This document shows, piece after piece, positions 2,967 to 15,717 of a stretch of DNA of 15,800 nt; position 1 is the stretch's first letter; every line of letters starts with the position of its first letter. Origin of the DNA: an uncultured archaeon. Its GTDB lineage: Archaea > Asgardarchaeota > Heimdallarchaeia > Heimdallarchaeales > Kariarchaeaceae. Made by a program: the position numbers and the translations under genes. Below the pieces are notes generated by a model that made no database searches, had not been told where the DNA came from, and was given only the letters and a program-made list of their open reading frames with translations. Location: positions 1 through 15,800 of the forward strand of contig CAZYCQ010000036.1 of NCBI GenBank assembly GCA_964645535.1. Reading direction: 5' to 3'.

Positions 2967-3965
2967 TCAAAGCAACCCTTTGAGGTAATTCCGATAATTT
3001 ACCCTGTAGGAAGGGTGGTATTCCGGTTCATTGTCCATAATCCTTTCAATCTCCTCTACAAGTTCTCTTGAAAGGTTAATTTCCCCTGCTGCCGCATTCT
3101 CTCTGACCTGTTCTGGCTTGCTCACCCCTGTGATCAGTGAGCTGATCTGTGGTCTGCTCAATGCCCAAGCCAGGGAAAGCTGAGTCAACGTCATATCATT
3201 TTCCTTGGCTAGCTCCCGCAATTTACGGAGTTTTGCAAAGACTTCTTCTGTCATCTCCCTCTCTGCCAACTTGTTGTACCTTGCGTGCCTTGAATCTTCT
3301 GGAATTCCGTCCAAATACTTGCCTGTGAGAATCCCTTGGGCAAGAGGCGACCAGACGGTAATTCCAATTCCATGGCCATCAATTGTATACCATAGCTCCT
3401 TTTCAATATAACGATCCAAAAGGTTGTATCTGGGTTGTTCCACAGCAGGTGGTCGAAGACCGAGTTCCTTGGCAATGCCGACTGCCCGTTCAATCTCCGC
3501 TGCAAACCATGTTGATGTTCCCCAATAATTGACAAGTCCCTCGTCAATAAGATTGTTCATGGTTCTGATGGTCTCTTCAAGTGGTGTTGAATAATCATAA
3601 CGATGACAGAAATAGATGTCTAAATAATCCGTGTTCAATCTGTGAAGGCTTTTCTCAATAGATTCCCGAATGTGCTTTTGAGATAGCCCTCGATCATTCG
3701 GGTTTTCTGACATCTTTCCGTAGACCTTTGAACTGATTACAAATTCAGCTCTGTCCCGATCTTTGAGGAACTCTCCAACGACTCGTTCAGATTCTCCTTT
3801 GTTATATACATCTGCCACATCAATAAAGTTTATTCCTTCCTCAACAGCAACTTCTAGACTATTGAGAGATGTCTGATCATCAACATTCATTCCAAAGGTC
3901 AACCATCCTCCAACACTGATCGCAGAGACTTTTGTTCCATATTTTCCCAATTTTCGGTATTGCAT
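2967..3965 (-). CDS. Aldo/keto reductase (Kv-beta/YghZ-like subfamily)
   Basis: MQYRKLGK.G.KVS..GGWLTFG, catalytic D..DVY, SSK, DIYFCHR, YWGTS, EQPRYN, WSPLAQGILTGKY. Confidence 0.93.
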   Translation of the reverse strand: MQYRKLGKYGTKVSAISVGGWLTFGMNVDDQTSLNSLEVAVEEGINFIDVADVYNKGESERVVGEFLKDRDRAEFVISSKVYGKMSENPNDRGLSQKHIRESIEKSLHRLNTDYLDIYFCHRYDYSTPLEETIRTMNNLIDEGLVNYWGTSTWFAAEIERAVGIAKELGLRPPAVEQPRYNLLDRYIEKELWYTIDGHGIGITVWSPLAQGILTGKYLDGIPEDSRHARYNKLAEREMTEEVFAKLRKLRELAKENDMTLTQLSLAWALSRPQISSLITGVSKPEQVRENAAAGEINLSRELVEEIERIMDNEPEYHPSYRVNYRNYLKGLL

Positions 3966-4075
3966 GCATTCCTATCCTTGCAGAAAATAAAAAGAATACG
4001 GATTTCCTAGTCAATTTCAACATCGTAACGGGAAACTTCCGATCAATTGAAATTCGAAGGCAGAATGATGGAAAT

Positions 4076-4927
4076 ATGATTAAAAACGTCTCAGTTATTG
4101 GTGCTGGCCAGATGGGTGCTGGAATTGCCCTTGTCTGTGCCATCAATGGATATGACGTTGTTCTCAATGATATTGAACAAAGGTTTATTGACAATGGTCT
4201 CAACAGGAACAAGGCGTGGCTTGAGAGACAAGTTGAAAAGGGAAGAATCACTCAAGAAAATGCAGACCAGATTTGGTCTCGGCTCACAGGTGAACTTGAC
4301 CTGCAATCTGCAGTCAAAAATGCAGATTTGGTCATTGAAGCCATCATCGAAAACTTGGAAATCAAGAAGGAACTCTGGAAAAAGGTTGGCGAATTTGCTC
4401 CAGCACATGCCATTTTCGGTTCCAACACTTCCTCCCTCTCCATCACAGAAATGGCGGTTGCTTCTGGCAGACCCGAGAAGTTTTTGGGAACCCATTTCTT
4501 CAATCCCCCTGTCATTATGAAAATCATTGAATTCATTAAAGGATATTCCACCTCTCAGGAAACCCTCGAAAAAGCCATTGAATTCGGAAAATCCTTGGAT
4601 ATGAAGACTGTTCTTGCCGCAGAAGCACCTGGTTTTATTGTGAATAGAATCCTTATTCCCATGCTCAATGAAGCATACTTTGCACTTCAGGAAGGCGTTG
4701 CGACCAAGGAGGATATCGATTTGGCCATTAAAATGGGACTGAACCATCCGATGGGTCCTTTTACTCTTAGTGATTTCATTGGACTTGACACTATCCTTTA
4801 CATTGCCGAATATCTCCATAAAGAACTAGGTGAGGATAAGTACCGTCCCTGCCCCCTGCTCAGGAAAATGGTACGTGCAGGAAAACTCGGACGCAAAACG
4901 GGTGAGGGTTTTTACAAATACGATTGA
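4076..4927 (+). CDS. hbd: 3-hydroxybutyryl-/3-hydroxyacyl-CoA dehydrogenase
   Basis: Start reassigned to ATG 4076 (MIKNVSVIGAGQMG Rossmann motif). Also DLVIEAIIE, SNTSSLSI, GTHFFNP, PGFIVNR, HPMGP, DFIGLD, GKLGRKTGEGFYKY. Confidence 0.93.
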   Translation: MIKNVSVIGAGQMGAGIALVCAINGYDVVLNDIEQRFIDNGLNRNKAWLERQVEKGRITQENADQIWSRLTGELDLQSAVKNADLVIEAIIENLEIKKELWKKVGEFAPAHAIFGSNTSSLSITEMAVASGRPEKFLGTHFFNPPVIMKIIEFIKGYSTSQETLEKAIEFGKSLDMKTVLAAEAPGFIVNRILIPMLNEAYFALQEGVATKEDIDLAIKMGLNHPMGPFTLSDFIGLDTILYIAEYLHKELGEDKYRPCPLLRKMVRAGKLGRKTGEGFYKYD

Positions 4928-4976
4928 TCCAGTCCAATGCCACTAATATTATATTTTCCCCTCCGAAAAAAGAAGC

Positions 4977-5378
4977 ATGGTATCGATCTCTCAAATCGCT
5001 ATCGCAGTGGAAGATATTGACAAAGCCAAAGGTGTTTTTGAAACTCTTATCGGCAAGCCTGCTAGCCAGCCCCATCTTGTTGAATCGCAAAATGTAAACG
5101 TCTCCTTTATCGAGGTCGGAGAAACCAAGATTGAACTCCTTGAACCTGCTGCTCCCCAAACTCCCATTACTAACTTTCTTGAGAAAAGAGGTGGTGGTAT
5201 TCACCATATAGGCATCAAGACCAACCAATTCGATGAGATGATTCAAAAGCTCAAATCCATGGGTGTCAGAACTCTTGGTGATCCCACTGTTGGTGCAGAA
5301 GGGCATCGTGTGATCTTTTTCCATCCCAAAGATACCTTTGGCGTTCTTATTGAACTCGAAGAGGCATCTGACGAATGA
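4977..5378 (+). CDS. mce: Methylmalonyl-CoA epimerase (VOC superfamily)
   Basis: KIELLEP, FLEKRGGGIHHI, GAEG..V.FFHPKDTFGVLIELEE. Confidence 0.87.
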   Translation: MVSISQIAIAVEDIDKAKGVFETLIGKPASQPHLVESQNVNVSFIEVGETKIELLEPAAPQTPITNFLEKRGGGIHHIGIKTNQFDEMIQKLKSMGVRTLGDPTVGAEGHRVIFFHPKDTFGVLIELEEASDE

Positions 5379-5908
5379 ATGAGGGCATTGACGACTGGGT
5401 TCTTATCCGTAAGAAATCCACAATTTCCACAAATGATGATGTGGCTGAACTTCTTGACAAGGGAATGGATAAAGTTGCAGTGATCAGCGAAATTCAGACT
5501 GGTGGAAGAGGAAGAAAAGGGAATTTTTGGCATTCCCCCCGTGGAGGAGTCTGGCTCAGCTTGGGGATGCATGCGGACGTTCCTGCCCAAGATCTGGTGA
5601 CTCCCTTCGTGGAAGGACTTGCGCAGGCTCTCACCCAAAAGTTTGGAACTTCTTTCTCCGTTAAACTCCCCAATGACATTTTCCTTAACAACAAGAAAGT
5701 GGCTGGAATTCTTATGGAAACAATAATTCAAAAAGATAGAATCCTAAGGGTTGTATTGGGAATTGGTATCAATGTAATTAATGAAATTCCTAAGGAACTC
5801 CATGAAATTGCCACTTCCCTTTCCCAAGAAGGTATTGAGGTAACGACTGATCAAGTCTTTGATCTAGTTTTCAAAATTGCATCGGATTTCCTCGACGGTC
5901 TCGCATGA
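5375..5908 (+). CDS. birA: Biotin--protein ligase, catalytic domain only
   Basis: STND, QTGGRGRKG.FWHSP, VKLPNDI, KKVAGIL.E, GIGINV, ATSL. ATGA overlap with mce. Confidence 0.85.
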   Translation: MNEGIDDWVLIRKKSTISTNDDVAELLDKGMDKVAVISEIQTGGRGRKGNFWHSPRGGVWLSLGMHADVPAQDLVTPFVEGLAQALTQKFGTSFSVKLPNDIFLNNKKVAGILMETIIQKDRILRVVLGIGINVINEIPKELHEIATSLSQEGIEVTTDQVFDLVFKIASDFLDGLA

Positions 5909-8322: not shown

Positions 8323-9699
8323 CTACCTTCTTCTTCTGTAATGCACAATTGTCGCAAAGCTTGCCAAGCTGAACAGAACAAGGTAGAAGCCAAATCCTGG
8401 GGCACTTCCGACTTTGGCGAAGGACGGGGTTTCGGTGCCTCCACCTGGCCACGTGATGGTACCTGTGATGGACATGCCATCTGTCTCACTCCATGAACCA
8501 ACTACCTTAAAGCTGTCACCCTGCAAGTTGAGGATGTCATAAAGTGCGTTCCTGTCTCCAAACTCATTAAAGGTAACTCTGCCGGTTGCACCTACAAAGT
8601 CACTCTTCTTCAATTCTGCAAGGAGTAGGTCACCATCAGTATAGTCCTTTCCTGCTTTAATCATTCTATCAAGGGCATAGGCAAACGCGTAGACTGCATC
8701 ATAAGCGAAAGTTGCAAAGGTGTTGGGGGTTCTGTCCCCACATCCTGTGTAATCATCGCTGGTCTTACCATTGCAGCTCTCCCAAATGTCAAGGAATTTT
8801 TCATATCCTGGTCCGCTTCCTCTGTTGGGGGCGGTTCCGATCATACCTTGCATTGCATCTTTGATCTCCGTATCAACCGTTCCGTCATCGTTTTCGAAAA
8901 CTGCCTCCTGCGTTGGACCGTCAGTACCGATCCAAACGTAATCCTCTCCGACAAGACCTACATCGTCTGCCTGTGAGAACACAGTTTTTGCATCACCCAC
9001 AATTGCGTTCAGGACGATGACATGTGCACCAGAATCTTTGATTGCTTGCAGTTGTGACTTGACATCGACAGCCCCTTGATCAAATCTTTGGGAGCTAAGG
9101 ATTTCAATTCCTTCTTCTCGAGCAGTTTCCTCAACCACTGTTATGCCTCCGAGACCATAGTCATCGGAAGTTGCCAAAGTCGCGATCTGGGTGAATCCCA
9201 TCTCCTTGATAATTTTGGCAATGGCAACTCCTTGTACTGAGTCTGGTGGGACAACCCTCAGGAAATAGGGATAGAGGGTTTTGTTTGAAAGGTCTGGATT
9301 TGTGGATGAATAGGAAATTTGGGGTACCTTACTTTGTTCTGCCACGCCTGCAACTGCTTTTGAGACAGCTGAGGAAGCAGCTCCAACAATCCCCACAGCT
9401 CCTTCATTGATTACGTCCTGTGCAACAGTCTTACCTACATCCGGCTTTGTCTGTGTGTCCCTGACTAGCAGGTTCAATGTATAGCCGTTCAATAGACTGT
9501 CATTTTCATTGATGATATCTACCGCCATTTGTGCGGCTGCTCTTCTTTCGACGCCTCCTCCTGCAAGAGTTCCTGTCAAGGGGAAGAGGCCGCCTATTTT
9601 GATTTCCGTGGTCTGACGCAGTTCAATTGCCTGAGCGCCTCCATAAGGCATCAGAAACACCAGACCCAACAGAAATAATGCTAGGGTTTTGTAATTCAT
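8323..9699 (-). CDS. ABC transporter amino-acid substrate-binding protein, Venus-flytrap/ANF-receptor type, with signal peptide and PGF-CTERM-like anchor
   Basis: Start reassigned to ATG 9699 (GGAGGT SD upstream, signal peptide MNYKTLALFLLGLVFLMPYGGAQA). IKIGGLFPLTG, VGAASSAVS, PQISYSST, YDAVYA, FVGATGRVTF. C-terminal APGF + TM helix + RRRR. Divergent from livFHMG. Confidence 0.9.
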   Translation of the reverse strand: MNYKTLALFLLGLVFLMPYGGAQAIELRQTTEIKIGGLFPLTGTLAGGGVERRAAAQMAVDIINENDSLLNGYTLNLLVRDTQTKPDVGKTVAQDVINEGAVGIVGAASSAVSKAVAGVAEQSKVPQISYSSTNPDLSNKTLYPYFLRVVPPDSVQGVAIAKIIKEMGFTQIATLATSDDYGLGGITVVEETAREEGIEILSSQRFDQGAVDVKSQLQAIKDSGAHVIVLNAIVGDAKTVFSQADDVGLVGEDYVWIGTDGPTQEAVFENDDGTVDTEIKDAMQGMIGTAPNRGSGPGYEKFLDIWESCNGKTSDDYTGCGDRTPNTFATFAYDAVYAFAYALDRMIKAGKDYTDGDLLLAELKKSDFVGATGRVTFNEFGDRNALYDILNLQGDSFKVVGSWSETDGMSITGTITWPGGGTETPSFAKVGSAPGFGFYLVLFSLASFATIVHYRRRR

Positions 9700-9713
9700 T
9701 TTTTCTAACCTCC

Positions 9714-9778
9714 AATCACAAAGACCGAATTTCTGCACATCTGTCTGAATTTCGAAAATGCAGTTGGTCTTTGCGATT
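9714..9778 (-). promoter_or_regulatory. Structured 5' leader (stem-loop) of the binding-protein mRNA
   Basis: Minus-strand AAUCGCAAAGACC pairs with GGUCUUUGUGAUU (13 bp, one G-U). Inner CUGCAU/GUGCAG stem. The SD GGAGG follows directly. Confidence 0.5.
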
Positions 9779-9799
9779 TGTCTTTCTTCCATCCTATAG

Positions 9800-9806
9800 T
9801 TTATAA
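9800..9806 (-). promoter_or_regulatory. Putative TATA box for the binding-protein gene
   Basis: TTATAAA on the minus strand in the AT-rich divergent region, about 22 nt upstream of the 5' end of the leader stem. Confidence 0.45.
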
Positions 9807-9914
9807 TATTTGTGGTTTGATGGAGTAGGAGTAAACAAAGTTCATATCTAAATTGAAAATTGCATGAACTAAGCACAATTATTTTTCTTTTCTTTTCAGA
9901 CTTTAACGGCAACA

Positions 9915-9924
9915 GATTTAAATC
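9915..9924 (+). promoter_or_regulatory. Putative TATA box/palindrome upstream of livF
   Basis: GATTTAAATC perfect palindrome containing TTTAAAT, about 47 nt upstream of the livF ATG. Confidence 0.35.
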
Positions 9925-9970
9925 CATTCGATAGTCAGAGACAAAGCACTAAATTCGGAAGGTAGCACCA

Positions 9971-10705
9971 ATGGTACAAAAGGTCATTGAAACACAAAAT
10001 CTCATTAGCGGCTACGGAAAATTGCAGATCATAAATGGGGTGGATATAGTTCTCAACAAGGGTGAATTGGTCACTATCATCGGCCCTAACGGATCCGGAA
10101 AATCCACCCTCATCAAGACAATAATTGGCTTGGTTCCTGCATGGTCTGGGCGTATCCTCATCAATGAGCAAATTGACATTACCGGGAAGAAACCTTATGA
10201 TATCATTTCCGAGGGAGTCCCCATTAATTATGTTCCTCAAGTAAACAATGTCTTTCCTACACTCTCAATTGAGGAAAATCTCCTGTTGGGTGCCTTGCCC
10301 CGTCGAAAGGATGGGAAAGAAGCCGTTTACAAAGATATGGAAGAAATCTTTCGCATCTTTCCACGTCTGAAAGAACGGAGATCTCAAAAAGCAGCTTTAC
10401 TATCCGGTGGTGAGCGTCAAATGCTTGCTCTTGGAAGAGCACTTATGTCCAATCCGGAAATCATTCTTCTCGATGAACCGACCGCCGCACTTGCCCCTGT
10501 TCTAGCTGATGAAATTTTCGAAAAAATTCTTCAACTCAAGGCTTTGGGGCTGAGCATACTTTTAGTGGAACAAAGAGCCACACGTGCCCTTAAAATCAGT
10601 GACAGAGGGTATGTCCTTGTCTCTGGTGAGGTTGCCTTCAGCGGCACAGCAAAGGAACTAATTGGCAACGAAAAAATTGGAGAACTCTATCTTGGCAAGA
10701 GGTGA
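9971..10705 (+). CDS. livF: Branched-chain amino acid (HAAT) ABC transporter ATP-binding protein, LivF-like
   Basis: Walker A GPNGSGKST, FPRLKER..Q.A..LSGGERQMLA, Walker B ILLDEPT, ILLVEQ, DRGYVL. Confidence 0.93.
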   Translation: MVQKVIETQNLISGYGKLQIINGVDIVLNKGELVTIIGPNGSGKSTLIKTIIGLVPAWSGRILINEQIDITGKKPYDIISEGVPINYVPQVNNVFPTLSIEENLLLGALPRRKDGKEAVYKDMEEIFRIFPRLKERRSQKAALLSGGERQMLALGRALMSNPEIILLDEPTAALAPVLADEIFEKILQLKALGLSILLVEQRATRALKISDRGYVLVSGEVAFSGTAKELIGNEKIGELYLGKR

Positions 10706-10711
10706 TGTGAT

Positions 10712-11956
10712 ATGAGCAATGAAGAAAACAATATCCAAACTCGCATTGAAAAAATTGATTCCGAGGAAATTGAGGAAGTAAAGGCACAAAAAACAACTTA
10801 TTTTGAGGAACATCCCGTTAAGGTGGTCGTACTTTCCTTGATTGTCATCCTCATACTTTCCTTTATCTTTACGGTGTACTTTAATCCATTCGGAATCAAT
10901 TTATTGCAACAATCATTGATTTCAATTGAAAGAGCCGCACTTTACATAATGGTTAGTGTAGGTCTTACATTAACCACCCGGGTGCTGAAATTCGGGAACT
11001 TTGCCCATGCAGAATTCCTTACTGTGGGCGTCTATACTGCCTTTGTCATTTCGTCCATTGATTTCTTCACGGGAACATGTTTTGGGGGTTTTTGCCTTGA
11101 CAACGTTTTTCTGATGATCATATATGTGTTCATATTCACTGGTCTCATGGGCATTCTTGGAGAGTATCTCGTCTTTGGTCCCCTTAGACGAAGGGATGCA
11201 ACTCCCCTTTCATTGATGGTCGCATCCATCGGTCTTGGATTGGTCATCCGACAGGTAATCGCAGAAATTTTCGACTCTACCTATAAACGTGTCGAGATCA
11301 AATACCCCGAATTCTTTGACAGCATTGGCGAGGGACTGCAAAATCTCGGCTTTCTCGGGAATCTGCTTGGCTTATGGTTCAACCAATTCACGGAGTTCAA
11401 TTTACCCGGTGGACGGTATGATGTCCGTCTTTCCCGAGACTTTGCTTGGGGCATCACTGTCATGGTTCTTCTCATCTGGGGAATGCGCCTGATTTTCACA
11501 AGAACCACCTTGGGAATTTCTATGAGGGCAACTGCTGATGATGCAAGCCTTGCCCAGATCAGTGGTATCAACACTGATTATGTCATCTATTGGACTTGGT
11601 TTATCGCAGCAGGCGTGACCGGTGTGGGGGCTTTCTTTCTCATTGCTCCCATCAACTTTATCCCTGCAAGCGGTTTCGCACAATTGCTCATCATCTTTGC
11701 AGTTGTCACCCTTGGAGGTTTTGACTCATTTGAAGGAACCTTGGTCAGTGGATTTATCATCTCCTTCATCCAGACCTTGACCATTCTTGTCAACAATGAG
11801 ATCCTCGAAATGGAAACCAGGCAAGGGCGAAAACTTGTGTTCTGGTCAACCAATCAGAATTGGTCTCTTGCAGGACCATTCTTCATAATTATCCTTGTCC
11901 TGATCTTCAGACCAAGGGGAATCTTCGGATTGATCGATCCGAAGGCGAAACTGTGA
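10712..11956 (+). CDS. livH: HAAT ABC transporter permease, LivH-like (with insertions)
   Basis: SVGLTL...LKFGNFAHAEF, ASIGLGL, RTTLG..MRATADD..LAQISGIN, VTLGG, LIFRPRGIFG. Confidence 0.9.
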   Translation: MSNEENNIQTRIEKIDSEEIEEVKAQKTTYFEEHPVKVVVLSLIVILILSFIFTVYFNPFGINLLQQSLISIERAALYIMVSVGLTLTTRVLKFGNFAHAEFLTVGVYTAFVISSIDFFTGTCFGGFCLDNVFLMIIYVFIFTGLMGILGEYLVFGPLRRRDATPLSLMVASIGLGLVIRQVIAEIFDSTYKRVEIKYPEFFDSIGEGLQNLGFLGNLLGLWFNQFTEFNLPGGRYDVRLSRDFAWGITVMVLLIWGMRLIFTRTTLGISMRATADDASLAQISGINTDYVIYWTWFIAAGVTGVGAFFLIAPINFIPASGFAQLLIIFAVVTLGGFDSFEGTLVSGFIISFIQTLTILVNNEILEMETRQGRKLVFWSTNQNWSLAGPFFIIILVLIFRPRGIFGLIDPKAKL

Positions 11957-11966
11957 GGTGTACAAA

Positions 11967-13535
11967 ATGTTCGACGAAGACCCAAAAACCATCAATTCCA
12001 TTATTGAGAACCGTATCGTGAAACGTGATGACCATTCCAAGAGCTACCTGTTGGCTGCTCTTTTTGGCATCCCTATTGGAATCCTCTTCTTCGTACCTAT
12101 CTTTCTTGGTACGGGATCCGCATCTGATTATATCCTCAGCACTTTTGCTCTCATTTTCATCTATGCCATCTTCTCCCTCAGCCTAAACCTCGAAGTGGGT
12201 TATTTGGGACTTCCCAACTTCGGTAAGGTAGCTTTTGTGGCTGTAGGTGGATACACTTTTGCCATTCTCGAAAGTAATGGACTGTTTAATGTCTGGATCA
12301 ACGTGATCTGGTCAATTGTTGCCACATGCGTGTTCGGAGTGGTTCTCACCCTTCCATCACTTCGATTGAAGGAAGATTACTTTGCCATAGCCACCATTGT
12401 CGCTGGAGAAATTGTCCGTATAACCGTGAACAACGAGGCTGCATTCGGAGGTTTTTCAGGAATAAAAGTACTGAACCCCATGTTTGTCGCCTACGATCCT
12501 GACGAGTTCATGACCCATTTCTTCATCAATCTTCCAAGCTTCCTGTTTACCCTTATTGTGGTGGGAATTACCTATGTAACCTACACCTATCGCAAACAGA
12601 GCATGGTTAAAATCTATTCTGAAGACAAGGCTGAACTCAAAGCATTTGAAGAAGCTGAAAAAGTAGCTGTTGTGCTCATGGTGCTTGGATTTGCCCTCAA
12701 TTTCATCAAGGCATTTGATTCCTCTCCATCATTTGGCGTCGACTTATTTCTGATCTTTCTCCTTCTCACCCTCCGTATGCGAATCAGTCTTTGGGGAAGA
12801 TCAAAACCCGAAGTTCCGGAAATATTTTTCATTATCCCCGCAGCTCTTGCTTTCATCCTTTTCATTGGGCGTTTTTTTGCCGACCCTGTCACTTCCATCT
12901 CAACTCCACAATGGTACAATACCCTTTTGGCATTCTCGGCATTAGTCCTGATTTATGCCGTCATTCAAAGCATTGATGCATCTCCTTTAGGCAGGACACT
13001 GAAAGCCATTCGAGAGGATGACACCAGTGCCATCTCCGTTGGCAAAAGCCTCCTGATATTTCGTCTCAAAGGGCTCATCCTTGCAAGTGCCATGGTCGGT
13101 CTGGCTGCACCCCTTTTCGTGTTTCAGTTGACTGGTGTTACCCCACTGACCTTCCTCCCCTTGCTTACCTTCACCCTTTATACCATGGTTATCGTAGGGG
13201 GAACTGCAAACAATAAGGGTGTCATCTTCGGAGCCGTGCTCTTTCAGATTCTTTCACAAGCCACTGCCAAGCTTTCCAATCTTAAGCTCGAATATCCATG
13301 GGGATCACCAGTTCGCCCCGAAAATTGGGCACTGATCATTACTGGTATTCTTCTCATTGTCTTCCTTATCTATGCTCCAGAAGGCATCTTCCCAGAAAAA
13401 CGCTATAACAATGAACGTTATTACGATATGTTGCATTATGCCGATCGAGTGGACGATGTCGAAACCAATGCCTTGCTGAACCTGATAGCCAAAGGAGCAA
13501 AATCCCCACTTCTTGACGGAGGTAAACAAGAATGA
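11967..13535 (+). CDS. livM: HAAT ABC transporter permease, LivM-like (enlarged)
   Basis: ATG 11967 is preceded by a GAGGTG SD (the alternative is GTG at 11958). SLNLEVGYLGLPNFG..AF, LRLKEDYFAIATI..GEI, SPLGR.LKAIREDD..A.S.GK, MVIVGG, PEGI. Confidence 0.9.
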   Translation: MFDEDPKTINSIIENRIVKRDDHSKSYLLAALFGIPIGILFFVPIFLGTGSASDYILSTFALIFIYAIFSLSLNLEVGYLGLPNFGKVAFVAVGGYTFAILESNGLFNVWINVIWSIVATCVFGVVLTLPSLRLKEDYFAIATIVAGEIVRITVNNEAAFGGFSGIKVLNPMFVAYDPDEFMTHFFINLPSFLFTLIVVGITYVTYTYRKQSMVKIYSEDKAELKAFEEAEKVAVVLMVLGFALNFIKAFDSSPSFGVDLFLIFLLLTLRMRISLWGRSKPEVPEIFFIIPAALAFILFIGRFFADPVTSISTPQWYNTLLAFSALVLIYAVIQSIDASPLGRTLKAIREDDTSAISVGKSLLIFRLKGLILASAMVGLAAPLFVFQLTGVTPLTFLPLLTFTLYTMVIVGGTANNKGVIFGAVLFQILSQATAKLSNLKLEYPWGSPVRPENWALIITGILLIVFLIYAPEGIFPEKRYNNERYYDMLHYADRVDDVETNALLNLIAKGAKSPLLDGGKQE

Positions 13536-14317
13536 CCGAATATATCCTCGAAGCAGAAAATATCCACAAGTACTTTGGAGGAGTCAAAGCCCTCAATGGT
13601 ACCACTGTCATGGTTGAAAAGGGTCAGTTGACGGCTCTTATCGGTCCCAACGGTAGCGGAAAAAGCACTTTCTTCAATGTTATCACAGGCTTTCTTGCTC
13701 CCGAACCCCACAGCGGAAAGATCAGGTTTTCCACTCACGACATCAAGAACATGCCGCCTGAAAAGATTCCCAGCTATGGTATGGTTCGGACATTCCAGCA
13801 CACCCGAAACTTTCCCAATATGACCGTTCTTGAAAATATGCTGGTATCTCCCTACCGCCAATCCGGTGAAAGCCTCATCTGGGGCTTCCTTGGCCGTGGT
13901 CTTTGGAAACGTGAAGATGCCGTCAATGTGAGGAAAGCCATTGCCATCCTCAAATTCCTAGAAATTGCCCATGTCATCGACCATCTCGCTGGAGAACTTT
14001 CAGGAGGACAACAGAAGCTTCTTGCAATTGGTAGATTGCTCATGACTGCACCTTCACTGCTTCTTCTTGATGAACCCGTTGCTGGTGTGAACCCAACACT
14101 GGCAAACAAGATCTTCGACCAAATCATCGAGCTGAAGAATACCAGCGGTATTGACATTCTCCTAATCGAGCACAATATGGATGTCGTCATGTCATTTTCC
14201 GATCATATCTTCGTCATGGCTGATGGAAAGGTGATTGCAGAAGGCGACGCCAGCACAATCCAGCAAGACAAGAAGGTTCTTGATGCCTATCTCGGAGAAA
14301 GTCCTGATGAAGCCTAA
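13532..14317 (+). CDS. livG: HAAT ABC transporter ATP-binding protein, LivG-like
   Basis: K.FGGVKAL, LIGPNGSGKST, G.VRTFQ, LSGGQQKLL, LLLDEP.AGVNP, IEHNMD, V.DAYLG. ATGA overlap with livM. Confidence 0.93.
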   Translation: MTEYILEAENIHKYFGGVKALNGTTVMVEKGQLTALIGPNGSGKSTFFNVITGFLAPEPHSGKIRFSTHDIKNMPPEKIPSYGMVRTFQHTRNFPNMTVLENMLVSPYRQSGESLIWGFLGRGLWKREDAVNVRKAIAILKFLEIAHVIDHLAGELSGGQQKLLAIGRLLMTAPSLLLLDEPVAGVNPTLANKIFDQIIELKNTSGIDILLIEHNMDVVMSFSDHIFVMADGKVIAEGDASTIQQDKKVLDAYLGESPDEA

Positions 14318-14397: not shown

Positions 14398-15717
14398 ATG
14401 GGTCAAATTACCCTTGGATCAAAATATGATCTCAATCATCTAGAAAATTATCTCAATCCCCACATGAAAGGGTTCGAAAAATCACCAACATTGGCAATAA
14501 ATGAGCTCTCCATTCAACTGGAAAAGGAAGGAAAGACTGTTTACCGGTTCGGGTTTGGTCAATCCCCATTCCCAGTCCCCGAGTTCATGGTCAAGGAATT
14601 GCAGAACTACGCAAGGGAAAAGGATTACCTTCCCGTCGAAGGCCTGCCGGAACTGAGAGAAGCCGTAGCCAAATTTTACCGTGAGGTCAAAGGTTATGGC
14701 GATGTCTCGGCAGATGAAGTGCTTATCGCTCCTGGATCAAAGCAACTTCTCTTCCTCATCCAATTCGTTCTCAACGCGGAACTCCTTATCCCCGTCCCGT
14801 GCTGGGTCACCTATATCCCCCAAGCACGTCTGCTCGGACGCAAGTTCCATACTTTCCCCACTGATGCAGATTCAAATTGGGAACTCGACCCGGATCAGCT
14901 TGAGGACTACCTGAAACATCATCCCGATTCTCCCAAACTTCTCCTTCTCAATTATTACAACAATCCCACTGGTACCGAAGCCATGGTCGACAACCTCAAA
15001 CGCATTGCAGAAATTGCCCGGAAATATGGTCTTATTGTCGTTTCAGACGAAATCTATGATCGACTCACCTTTACCGATGAATACTGTTCCATCGCCCAAT
15101 ACTACCCTGAAGGAACCATCATCAGCAGTGGCCTTTCCAAATGGGCAGGTGCCGGGGGATGGCGACTTGGTACCTTCATCTTCCCCAAGCAGCTCAAGGA
15201 AATCCAGAAGGCATGTGCTGTCCTCGCCTCAGAAACCTATTCCTGTGTTGCTGCCCCCATCCAGTACGCCGCAATTTCCGCATATGAAAACCGAACCTTG
15301 ATGAAAAAATTCATCTCCAAATCCACAAAAATTCTCAAGATCATCTCCTCATATTGCTCCATGAGATTGAGGCAGGCAGGTATCAAAGTTAATCCGGCCG
15401 CAGGGGCATTCTATCTCTTCATTGATTTTGAAAAGTTCAGACCCAAACTTGCCAAACTGGAAATCACTACCGGACCCCAACTTATGGCTACCCTTTTGGC
15501 AGAATCCGGAGTTGCCCTTCTTCCTGGAACTGCCTTTGGCATGCCACCCGAATCCCTAACTGCACGGCTTGCCTACGTCGACTTCAATGGTGCTCATGCC
15601 CTTGAAAAGATATCTGAATATTTCGAATATGACAATGACCGAGAATTCCTCCTAGAAATTGCCCCACACATTGTCAAAGGAATCGATGCCCTTGTTCAAT
15701 GGGTCAAGCATCTCTAA
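14398..15717 (+). CDS. PLP-dependent aminotransferase class I/II (aspartate aminotransferase-like)
   Basis: AGGAGG SD upstream. FGFGQSPFPVP, GLPELREA, PGSKQ, NNPTG, SDEIY, SGLSKW..GGWRLG (PLP Lys), GAFY, GVALLPG.AFG. Confidence 0.9.
   Translation: MGQITLGSKYDLNHLENYLNPHMKGFEKSPTLAINELSIQLEKEGKTVYRFGFGQSPFPVPEFMVKELQNYAREKDYLPVEGLPELREAVAKFYREVKGYGDVSADEVLIAPGSKQLLFLIQFVLNAELLIPVPCWVTYIPQARLLGRKFHTFPTDADSNWELDPDQLEDYLKHHPDSPKLLLLNYYNNPTGTEAMVDNLKRIAEIARKYGLIVVSDEIYDRLTFTDEYCSIAQYYPEGTIISSGLSKWAGAGGWRLGTFIFPKQLKEIQKACAVLASETYSCVAAPIQYAAISAYENRTLMKKFISKSTKILKIISSYCSMRLRQAGIKVNPAAGAFYLFIDFEKFRPKLAKLEITTGPQLMATLLAESGVALLPGTAFGMPPESLTARLAYVDFNGAHALEKISEYFEYDNDREFLLEIAPHIVKGIDALVQWVKHL

Follow-up and report, generated by a model that had tools for sequence, protein, structure and literature searches.

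The window, i.e. the whole stretch of 15,800 nucleotides that was analysed, contains a gene for a membrane-anchored substrate-binding protein (P0001) lying head to head with livF-livH-livM-livG, with 271 bp between. The following features were assigned at the locus:

8323..9699, minus strand: P0001, a LIV-type substrate-binding protein of 458 aa, anchored in the membrane and carrying a Venus flytrap of eukaryote-like type
9628..9699, minus strand: predicted signal peptide of P0001, about residues 1-24 (hydropathy peak at residues 6-25; homologues start here)
9544..9546, minus strand: Arg52 of P0001, at the alignment position of the mGluR distal-carboxylate Arg
8440..9612, minus strand: Venus flytrap of P0001 (type I periplasmic-binding fold), residues 30-420 (PF01094; model; GABA-B matches)
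8920..9372, minus strand: alpha-amino-acid motif of P0001, S110, T133, R148, D153, Q156, Y181, G182 and D260 (strict match to the motif in PMC12965686)
8740..8775, minus strand: Cys309/Cys320 pair of P0001, in the loop after the conserved W306 (alignment)
8326..8403, minus strand: C-terminal PGF-type motif, one transmembrane (TM) helix and basic tail of P0001, a Heimdall-CTERM-like anchor
9700..9970, no strand: divergent intergenic region, 271 bp, AT-rich (sequence)
9971..10705, plus strand: livF-type ABC ATPase (best family PRK11614; tree)
10712..11956, plus strand: livH-type permease (PF02653; tree)
11958..13535, plus strand: livM-type permease (PF02653, PRK11301)
13532..14317, plus strand: livG-type ABC ATPase (best family PRK11300)
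14398..15717, plus strand: PLP aminotransferase of class I/II (archaeal aspartate aminotransferase NF041091 ranked first among families, below cut-off)

The P0001 reading frame (8323-9699, minus strand) was translated without a stop into 458 aa. The frame stays open upstream, giving 534 aa from 9927; position 9699 is the likely start since the hydrophobic signal core spans residues 6-25 and P0003, 88% identical to P0001, is likewise 458 aa long. Residues 433-458, absent from the first-pass annotation, form a C-terminal anchor made up of a PGF-type TM segment and the basic tail that follows it. The Heimdall-CTERM profile (NF045529) scored 16.4 bits on P0001, under its cut-off of 24, and was cleared by the homologue P0020 at 28.5 bits; among 57 relatives of P0001, a basic tail was present in 51 and a PGF-like motif in 38. 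With an N-terminal hydrophobic signal and a C-terminal helix followed by a basic tail, P0001 is predicted to be exported and surface-tethered. No cytoplasmic domain was found in P0001, which has just a few basic residues after the helix. In agreement with the first-pass annotation, a profile search of P0001 detected neither a 7TM (PF00003) nor a cyclase or other enzyme domain, the protein ending after its single C-terminal helix. The cysteine-rich NCD3G linker (PF07562) had no match in P0001, and the only two Cys residues are both located within the flytrap.

The head-to-head arrangement with the liv genes had been proposed previously and was confirmed, with livF starting at 9971, livH at 10712, livM at 11958 and livG at 13532. 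A scan of 9700..9970 for bacterial-type (sigma-70) promoters performed no better than on shuffled sequence. The aminotransferase at 14398..15717 scored 187.8 bits against NF041091 (cut-off 550), and a homologue is found near the liv operon in several relatives. An archaeal glycerol-1-phosphate dehydrogenase gene is located on the other flank of P0001. Elsewhere in the window, a cluster encoding 3-hydroxybutyryl-CoA dehydrogenase, methylmalonyl-CoA epimerase and biotin ligase (3932-5908) fits amino-acid/acyl-CoA catabolism near an importer. Two adjoining PRC-barrel proteins of 220 and 207 aa (874-2149) are encoded downstream of an FKBP-type isomerase gene; this pair adjoins a proteasome assembly chaperone (PAC2) gene and is conserved in a same-genus genome.

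Named homologues of P0001 belong to Kariarchaeaceae or Heimdallarchaeota, LC_2 among them. The host is read as a member of the Heimdallarchaeia, and hence as Asgard, the condition that the first-pass annotation had set for its origin hypothesis, and probably of the family Kariarchaeaceae; a 16S gene was not found in its assembly. Two DNA data sets, both hot-spring metagenomes from a single study and perhaps the source itself, carry the sequence, and no RNA data set was listed for it. Two sets of liv permeases are encoded by the host, each with its own adjoining binding protein, and P0001 is the only intact binding protein adjoining its livFHMG operon. The second liv system (G000 C1:14408-19927, minus strand) includes a binding protein of the ordinary type and an 861-aa permease in which LivH and LivM are fused. 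A further ordinary-type binding protein, closest to this C1 paralogue, carries a frameshift near 18400-18436 (G000 C11:17447-18929, minus strand) and is either a pseudogene or an assembly error. An orphan paralogue from P0001's own family (G000 C76:234-1607, minus strand), 45% identical and with eight N-x-S/T sequons, is without adjoining liv genes and has an orthologue in G053:C50. The host also encodes, apart from A', an RNA polymerase A'' homologue of 890 aa (G000 C9:18526-21198, plus strand) with an insert of roughly 430 aa, possibly an intein.

Relatives of P0001 were divided into two archaeal subfamilies, a Kari-type (including P0001) encoded divergently from its operon and a Hod-type, from Hodarchaeales, encoded in the same direction. 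The latter includes B3_Heim, which has been named Hodarchaeota (PMC8813620). Among 400 Asgard genomes searched, the P0001 type was recovered from four Heimdallarchaeia families (10/11, 2/3, 6/22 and 1/2 genomes, some of these matches being to the ordinary paralogue only) and was not found in two others (0/31 and 0/12 genomes). Outside the Heimdallarchaeia, a single genome of the 400 (G397, with 9% contamination) contained the type. This genome holds an entire Hod-type operon (L047, G397:C38), nested among Hodarchaeales copies, which represents transfer between Asgard classes or bin contamination. The order livF-H-M-G together with a binding protein was observed in 10 Kari-type genomes, where some loci are incomplete and two have an aminotransferase in between, and at 9 Hod-type loci; most ordinary paralogues instead accompany the order livH-M-G-F. 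Transporter trees united the Kari-type and Hod-type operons (LivF+LivG, 97.4/100; LivH+LivM, 98.8/100), and the binding protein of G078 tracks its transporter. Furthermore, both subfamilies share the same type of anchor. Identity across genera within the family is 35-88%, and Hod-type proteins are 40% identical to P0001. The linkage to liv genes and the co-descent with the transporter are consistent with the earlier proposal of a transport-dedicated prokaryotic protein.

Orphans without liv genes were present in both subfamilies (host C76, G053:C50, G057:C93, P0139 and P0059). Two orphan family members adjoin PAS two-component genes (L080:6301-9377 and L083:7517-11769; PAS-GAF-receiver and PAS histidine kinase), which was not seen as a conserved pairing. 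The archaeal family member P0190 (L160:5820-7799) has a short tail on the cytoplasmic side in which the Cys/His pattern is C2H2-like; the parts added in P0190, P0174, P0122, P0264 and P0130 (L083:7517-10261) are this C2H2-like tail, a beta-helix or tandem flytraps, the last of which are also found in many protist receptors. One Hod-type gene (L074:1959-3164, G078:C265) has an in-frame TAG in mid-domain, adjoins an intact-looking livF, and reflects a pseudogene, an error or recoding. No signalling-domain fusion was found among longer prokaryotic homologues in a weak search. A 7tm_3 match over the cut-off was not found in 83 Heimdallarchaeia genomes, where the control was also without a match, so that absence is not claimed. 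Gene-dense metagenome contigs yielded two intronless flytrap-7TM genes, which were considered as possible Asgard GPCRs and rejected, as both contigs are eukaryotic, with a Pol III RPC1 neighbour on one and a CPSF73-type neighbour on the other. Gene-dense eukaryotic contigs with uninterrupted flytrap-7TM genes were L085 and L158, one of these genes lying beside Ric8 and Pol III RPC1.

According to the first-pass annotation, P0001 resembles a class C flytrap well beyond the likeness typical of bacterial LivJ/LivK. The profile comparison put PF01094 (ANF_receptor) ahead of PF13458 (Peripla_BP_6), at 279.6 against 164 bits (PF13458 cut-off 31.7), and the best 60 PDB sequence matches were all eukaryotic flytraps (mGluRs, AtGLR3.4 and GABA-B), with mGluR8 at 117.8 bits; the claim was upheld on both counts, the resemblance greatly exceeding what chance would give. 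On its own, the PF01094 score was not accepted as marking the eukaryote-like type, because ordinary paralogues reach 160 bits. The PDB, a sequence set independent of the author's choice, also served as a control: the best eukaryotic flytrap scored about 117 bits for P0001 and 100 for the Hod-type, compared with 62 and 52 for ordinary Heimdall paralogues and 52 for a bacterial relative, and the first PDB match of the host's ordinary paralogue was bacterial LivJ/K (111 bits). In an exhaustive search of 1.84 billion representatives, protist receptors were the best matches after about 65 archaeal relatives. The closest non-Asgard sequence was a Thecamonas flytrap-phosphodiesterase, 43% identical to P0001, and a eukaryotic flytrap-7TM protein was 41% identical; none of the ordinary prokaryotic binding proteins in the tree set exceeded 34% identity to P0001's group. 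Among the best 150 of the 1.84 billion, the full-length domains from neither Heimdall nor the eukaryote side belonged to tandem-domain proteins, whose single domains were placed in the outgroup. The best-partner count of 224/228 is inflated because the eukaryotic sequences were retrieved with P0001 as query.

Structural comparison gave a similar ranking. The AlphaFold model of P0001 (pLDDT 95.8), whose alignment included eight eukaryotic rows, had five GABA-B chains as its top matches (Z 41.7-43.9, rmsd 2.4-2.8, 372-378 residues aligned), followed by Thermotoga LivK TM1135 at Z 40.4 (rmsd 3.0, 343 aligned), the lead of GABA-B over bacterial proteins being just 1-3.5 Z units. Foldseek and Atlas were consistent with this eukaryotic-first ranking. 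A homodimer prediction with 42 archaeal rows returned a score of 0.00, which is no answer and bears neither way.

The eight-residue alpha-amino-acid motif, as quoted in PMC12965686, is matched exactly by P0001. The motif was present in 14/26 ordinary prokaryotic and 25/49 eukaryotic domains; being equally common in both groups, it would indicate amino-acid binding and not receptor kinship. All nine motifs quoted in the first-pass annotation are present in P0001 (starts 126, 179, 254, 333, 355, 375, 387, 397 and 415), but the amino-acid-anchoring residues behind several of them belong to this generic motif. Derived characters that P0001 shares with eukaryotes include G37, F39, R52, P144, W306, R383, N391 and the C-terminal Trp region. 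Arg at position 52 was found in 83% of Kari-type, 100% of Hod-type and 39% of eukaryotic rows and is outside the outgroup's three commonest residues; it aligns with the distal Arg of mGluRs, R78 in mGluR1. The position of the distal Lys in mGluRs and of Glu in GABA-B1 is F328 in P0001, an aromatic residue, and LivJ/K and most protist domains agree with P0001 here. The glutamate pair of mGluRs, distal Arg plus distal Lys, is incomplete in P0001, R52 being kept and F328 replacing Lys. Because Arg52 is kept and F328 is aromatic, the best guess for the ligand is an amino acid that is probably polar or acidic, unless a broad range is bound; the nearby aspartate-aminotransferase-like gene fits an amino-acid ligand weakly. 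Two Cys residues were present in the W306 loop of 13/18 Kari-type, 5/12 Hod-type, 7/49 eukaryotic and 1/26 outgroup domains, and mGluRs carry two Cys in the loop matching C309/C320, where a Cys309-Cys320 disulfide is probable in P0001.

To place P0001 among flytrap domains, a main tree of 64 domains was constructed under LG+C20+F+G4, with the bootstrap not fully settled (0.989). This set leaves out seven long-branch rows and redundant rows; the flytrap trees include GLR-type channels and leave out animal iGluR N-terminal domains, natriuretic peptide receptors and partial hits. Many eukaryotic rows are metagenome proteins labelled via named members, domain architecture or tree position, and whole phyla were sampled for the outgroup in Asgard and Chloroflexota only. 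Kari-type, Hod-type and eukaryotic domains formed one clade (100/100; 1000/1000 bootstrap trees), also recovered at 99 in a 105-row quick tree, in a 383-row tree (FastTree) and, at 100/100, after the fastest 30% of sites were dropped. No long-branch warning was raised in the 64-row tree. FastTree also drew three Ktedonobacterales proteins in among the eukaryotes, an artefact, since under C20 they fell outside the clade. The next branches outside the clade were ordinary Hodarchaeales paralogues together with P0416 (95/83), and a constraint grouping the Heimdall proteins with eukaryotes outside was rejected (-124.6 log units, AU p=5e-6). In these trees P0001's family and the eukaryotic flytraps thus stand together, with every ordinary prokaryotic binding protein in the sample outside, which makes the family the nearest prokaryotic relative of eukaryotic receptor flytraps in this analysis. 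P0001 did not fall among ordinary LivK-type proteins, as the first-pass proposal requires.

Within the clade, Kari-type domains grouped with eukaryotes at 78/97 in the 64-row tree. AU tests did not reject eukaryote monophyly (p=0.52, with a bootstrap of just 3.6%), Kari+Hod (p=0.29), Hod+eukaryotes (p=0.31) and Kari-type nested with Thecamonas-type proteins (p=0.31). Unconstrained trees put the archaeal group among eukaryotes with a varying partner, i.e. Thecamonas-type, GLR-type (93/71) or none fixed. The proposal that P0001 is a prokaryotic sister of eukaryotic flytraps is therefore retained for the shared clade and not for the sister order, as sister, grade and nested arrangements all gave AU p 0.29-0.52. 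As the branching order is not fixed, the direction of descent rests on the Heimdall outgroups and on transporter co-descent, not on the root.

With the anatomy described above, its operon linkage, its co-descent with the transporter and its intact amino-acid motif, P0001 is most likely an ABC amino-acid binding protein of the lineage that gave eukaryotes their flytrap domain. With slightly less assurance, the favoured origin of the eukaryotic receptor flytrap is a single Heimdallarchaeia livF-H-M-G binding protein, passed down vertically through the Asgard host lineage and not taken from bacteria, of which P0001 would be a little-changed descendant and the orphans a step off the transporter. 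The opposite direction is unlikely, i.e. transfer of an early receptor ectodomain from a eukaryote into Kariarchaeaceae or the Kari/Hod ancestor, with loss of the signalling module, gain of an archaeal anchor and takeover of the binding-protein position in a liv operon that was already there. It is consistent with protist receptors as the best non-Asgard matches (41-43%, slightly above the 40% of the Hod-type), the archaeal group among eukaryotic lineages in unconstrained trees, the AU result for nesting with Thecamonas-type proteins, the patchy distribution across Heimdallarchaeia, and a report that other genes have moved between Hodarchaeales and Kariarchaeaceae (10.1101/2025.02.26.640444). 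However, the nested partner shifts with method and was never starred, the transporters of the Kari-type and the Hod-type share a single clade and the same gene order, both archaeal binding-protein families have the same anchor type, the next outgroups are again Heimdall proteins, and the GC and GC3 of P0001 are those of neighbouring genes. A recent transfer is excluded because the family is deep, as the identities across genera indicate.

A role for P0001 mainly as a sensor, signalling via a separate membrane partner and not serving transport, appears quite improbable. Several family members are orphans, two of these lie beside PAS-type two-component genes and P0190 has a cytoplasmic tail, all of which would suit such a role. 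P0001, by contrast, has just a few basic residues past its helix and is the sole intact binding protein in a conserved livFHMG linkage; each host permease set has its own binding protein, and the 7tm_3 search with its unmatched control and the weak search for prokaryotic signalling fusions yielded none. Least credible of all is an ordinary archaeal LivK-type protein that resembles receptors because it evolved slowly, because the amino-acid chemistry is shared or because bacterial relatives are missing from the sample, a reading in line with the generic core ligand motif, PF01094 scores of 113-160 bits in ordinary paralogues and up to 147 in Chloroflexota, the limited whole-phylum outgroup sampling, and bacterial and Thermoplasmatota clusters at 0.94-0.95 in the ESM Atlas, but already contradicted by the 64-row tree, in which a site-heterogeneous model gives the stem full support and a long branch, and by the AU rejection, and opposed by derived residues outside the pocket common to P0001 and eukaryotes, the same-genome paralogue that matches bacterial LivJ/K first, and plasmid-borne bacterial matches of only 80 bits (22-30%).

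In the favoured reading, P0001 would bind the substrate for an ABC importer of the HAAT/LIV family as one of its subunits, exported and then held outside the membrane by its C-terminal helix. As in other members of the family, its lobes would close on an L-alpha-amino acid and pass it to LivH/LivM, with LivF/LivG driving import. The Kari-type and Hodarchaeales families would both derive from one livF-H-M-G system of Heimdallarchaeia, and the eukaryotic flytraps (class C GPCRs, GLR channels, receptor phosphodiesterases, kinases and cyclases) most likely from the same binding-protein lineage, its flytrap being fused to signalling modules later.

In function, P0001 would be a binding protein of the LivJ/K kind; a class C GPCR it is not. 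With LivJ/LivK-type proteins (E. coli LivJ/K; TM1135, PDB 3TD9; PF13458) it has in common the two-lobed type I fold, the amino-acid motif, the livFHMG role and the aromatic residue at the side-chain position of F328. Identity to E. coli LivK is only 23%, the LivJ/K family NF011933 scored 72.8 bits on P0001 (cut-off 477), and the superposition on GABA-B covers about 30 residues more than the one on TM1135. Unlike LivJ/K, P0001 has Arg52, two paired Cys in its W306 loop and a TM anchor at the C-terminus, and belongs to a separate clade. Class C GPCR flytraps are its best sequence and structure matches, fall with it in one clade in all trees, and share the seven derived residues listed above and the C-terminal extension; P0001 differs from these receptors in being encoded with an ABC transporter and having no 7TM, cysteine-rich domain or cytoplasmic part. 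It also has Phe in place of the distal Lys/Glu of mGluR/GABA-B1 and lacks the large mGluR insertions. The plant-type GLR channel AtGLR3.4 (PDB 7LZH) aligns with P0001 over nearly the whole domain (114.8 bits) and GLR-type rows occur in its clade, whereas P0001 is without the S1/S2 ligand domain and the channel. The catalytic tail of the 43% identical flytrap-phosphodiesterase (Thecamonas trahens AMSG_07791) is likewise missing from P0001. A flytrap with a membrane anchor only, as in P0001, is described for the GPI-anchored EhVFT of Entamoeba (PMC12965686), a likeness by description and not by sequence.

The relationship between the flytrap and bacterial binding protein folds has long been known (PMC2670285, PMC13466386), with identities of 7.5-8.5% between GABA-B and bacterial proteins (PMC2670285). 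No description of a specific close Asgard donor of the eukaryotic flytrap was found in the literature searched, and the main text of PMC12962969 and PMC7997004 contains no mention of an Asgard flytrap link. A bioRxiv preprint (10.64898/2026.10.28.762692) includes, in one phrase, 'a class C GPCR' in its list of structural clusters that join Asgard archaea and eukaryotes; that cluster may or may not be P0001's family. In the usual account, the flytraps of class C GPCRs are related to periplasmic binding proteins of bacteria, with which they share very little identity, and the donor goes unnamed. A transporter-tied prokaryotic family with up to 43% identity, from the archaeal class closest to eukaryotes, offers both a candidate donor and a close outgroup, with which receptor trees can be rooted, the first ligand can be asked, and it can be tested whether dimerisation and glutamate preference predate fusion to 7TM, channel or enzyme modules.
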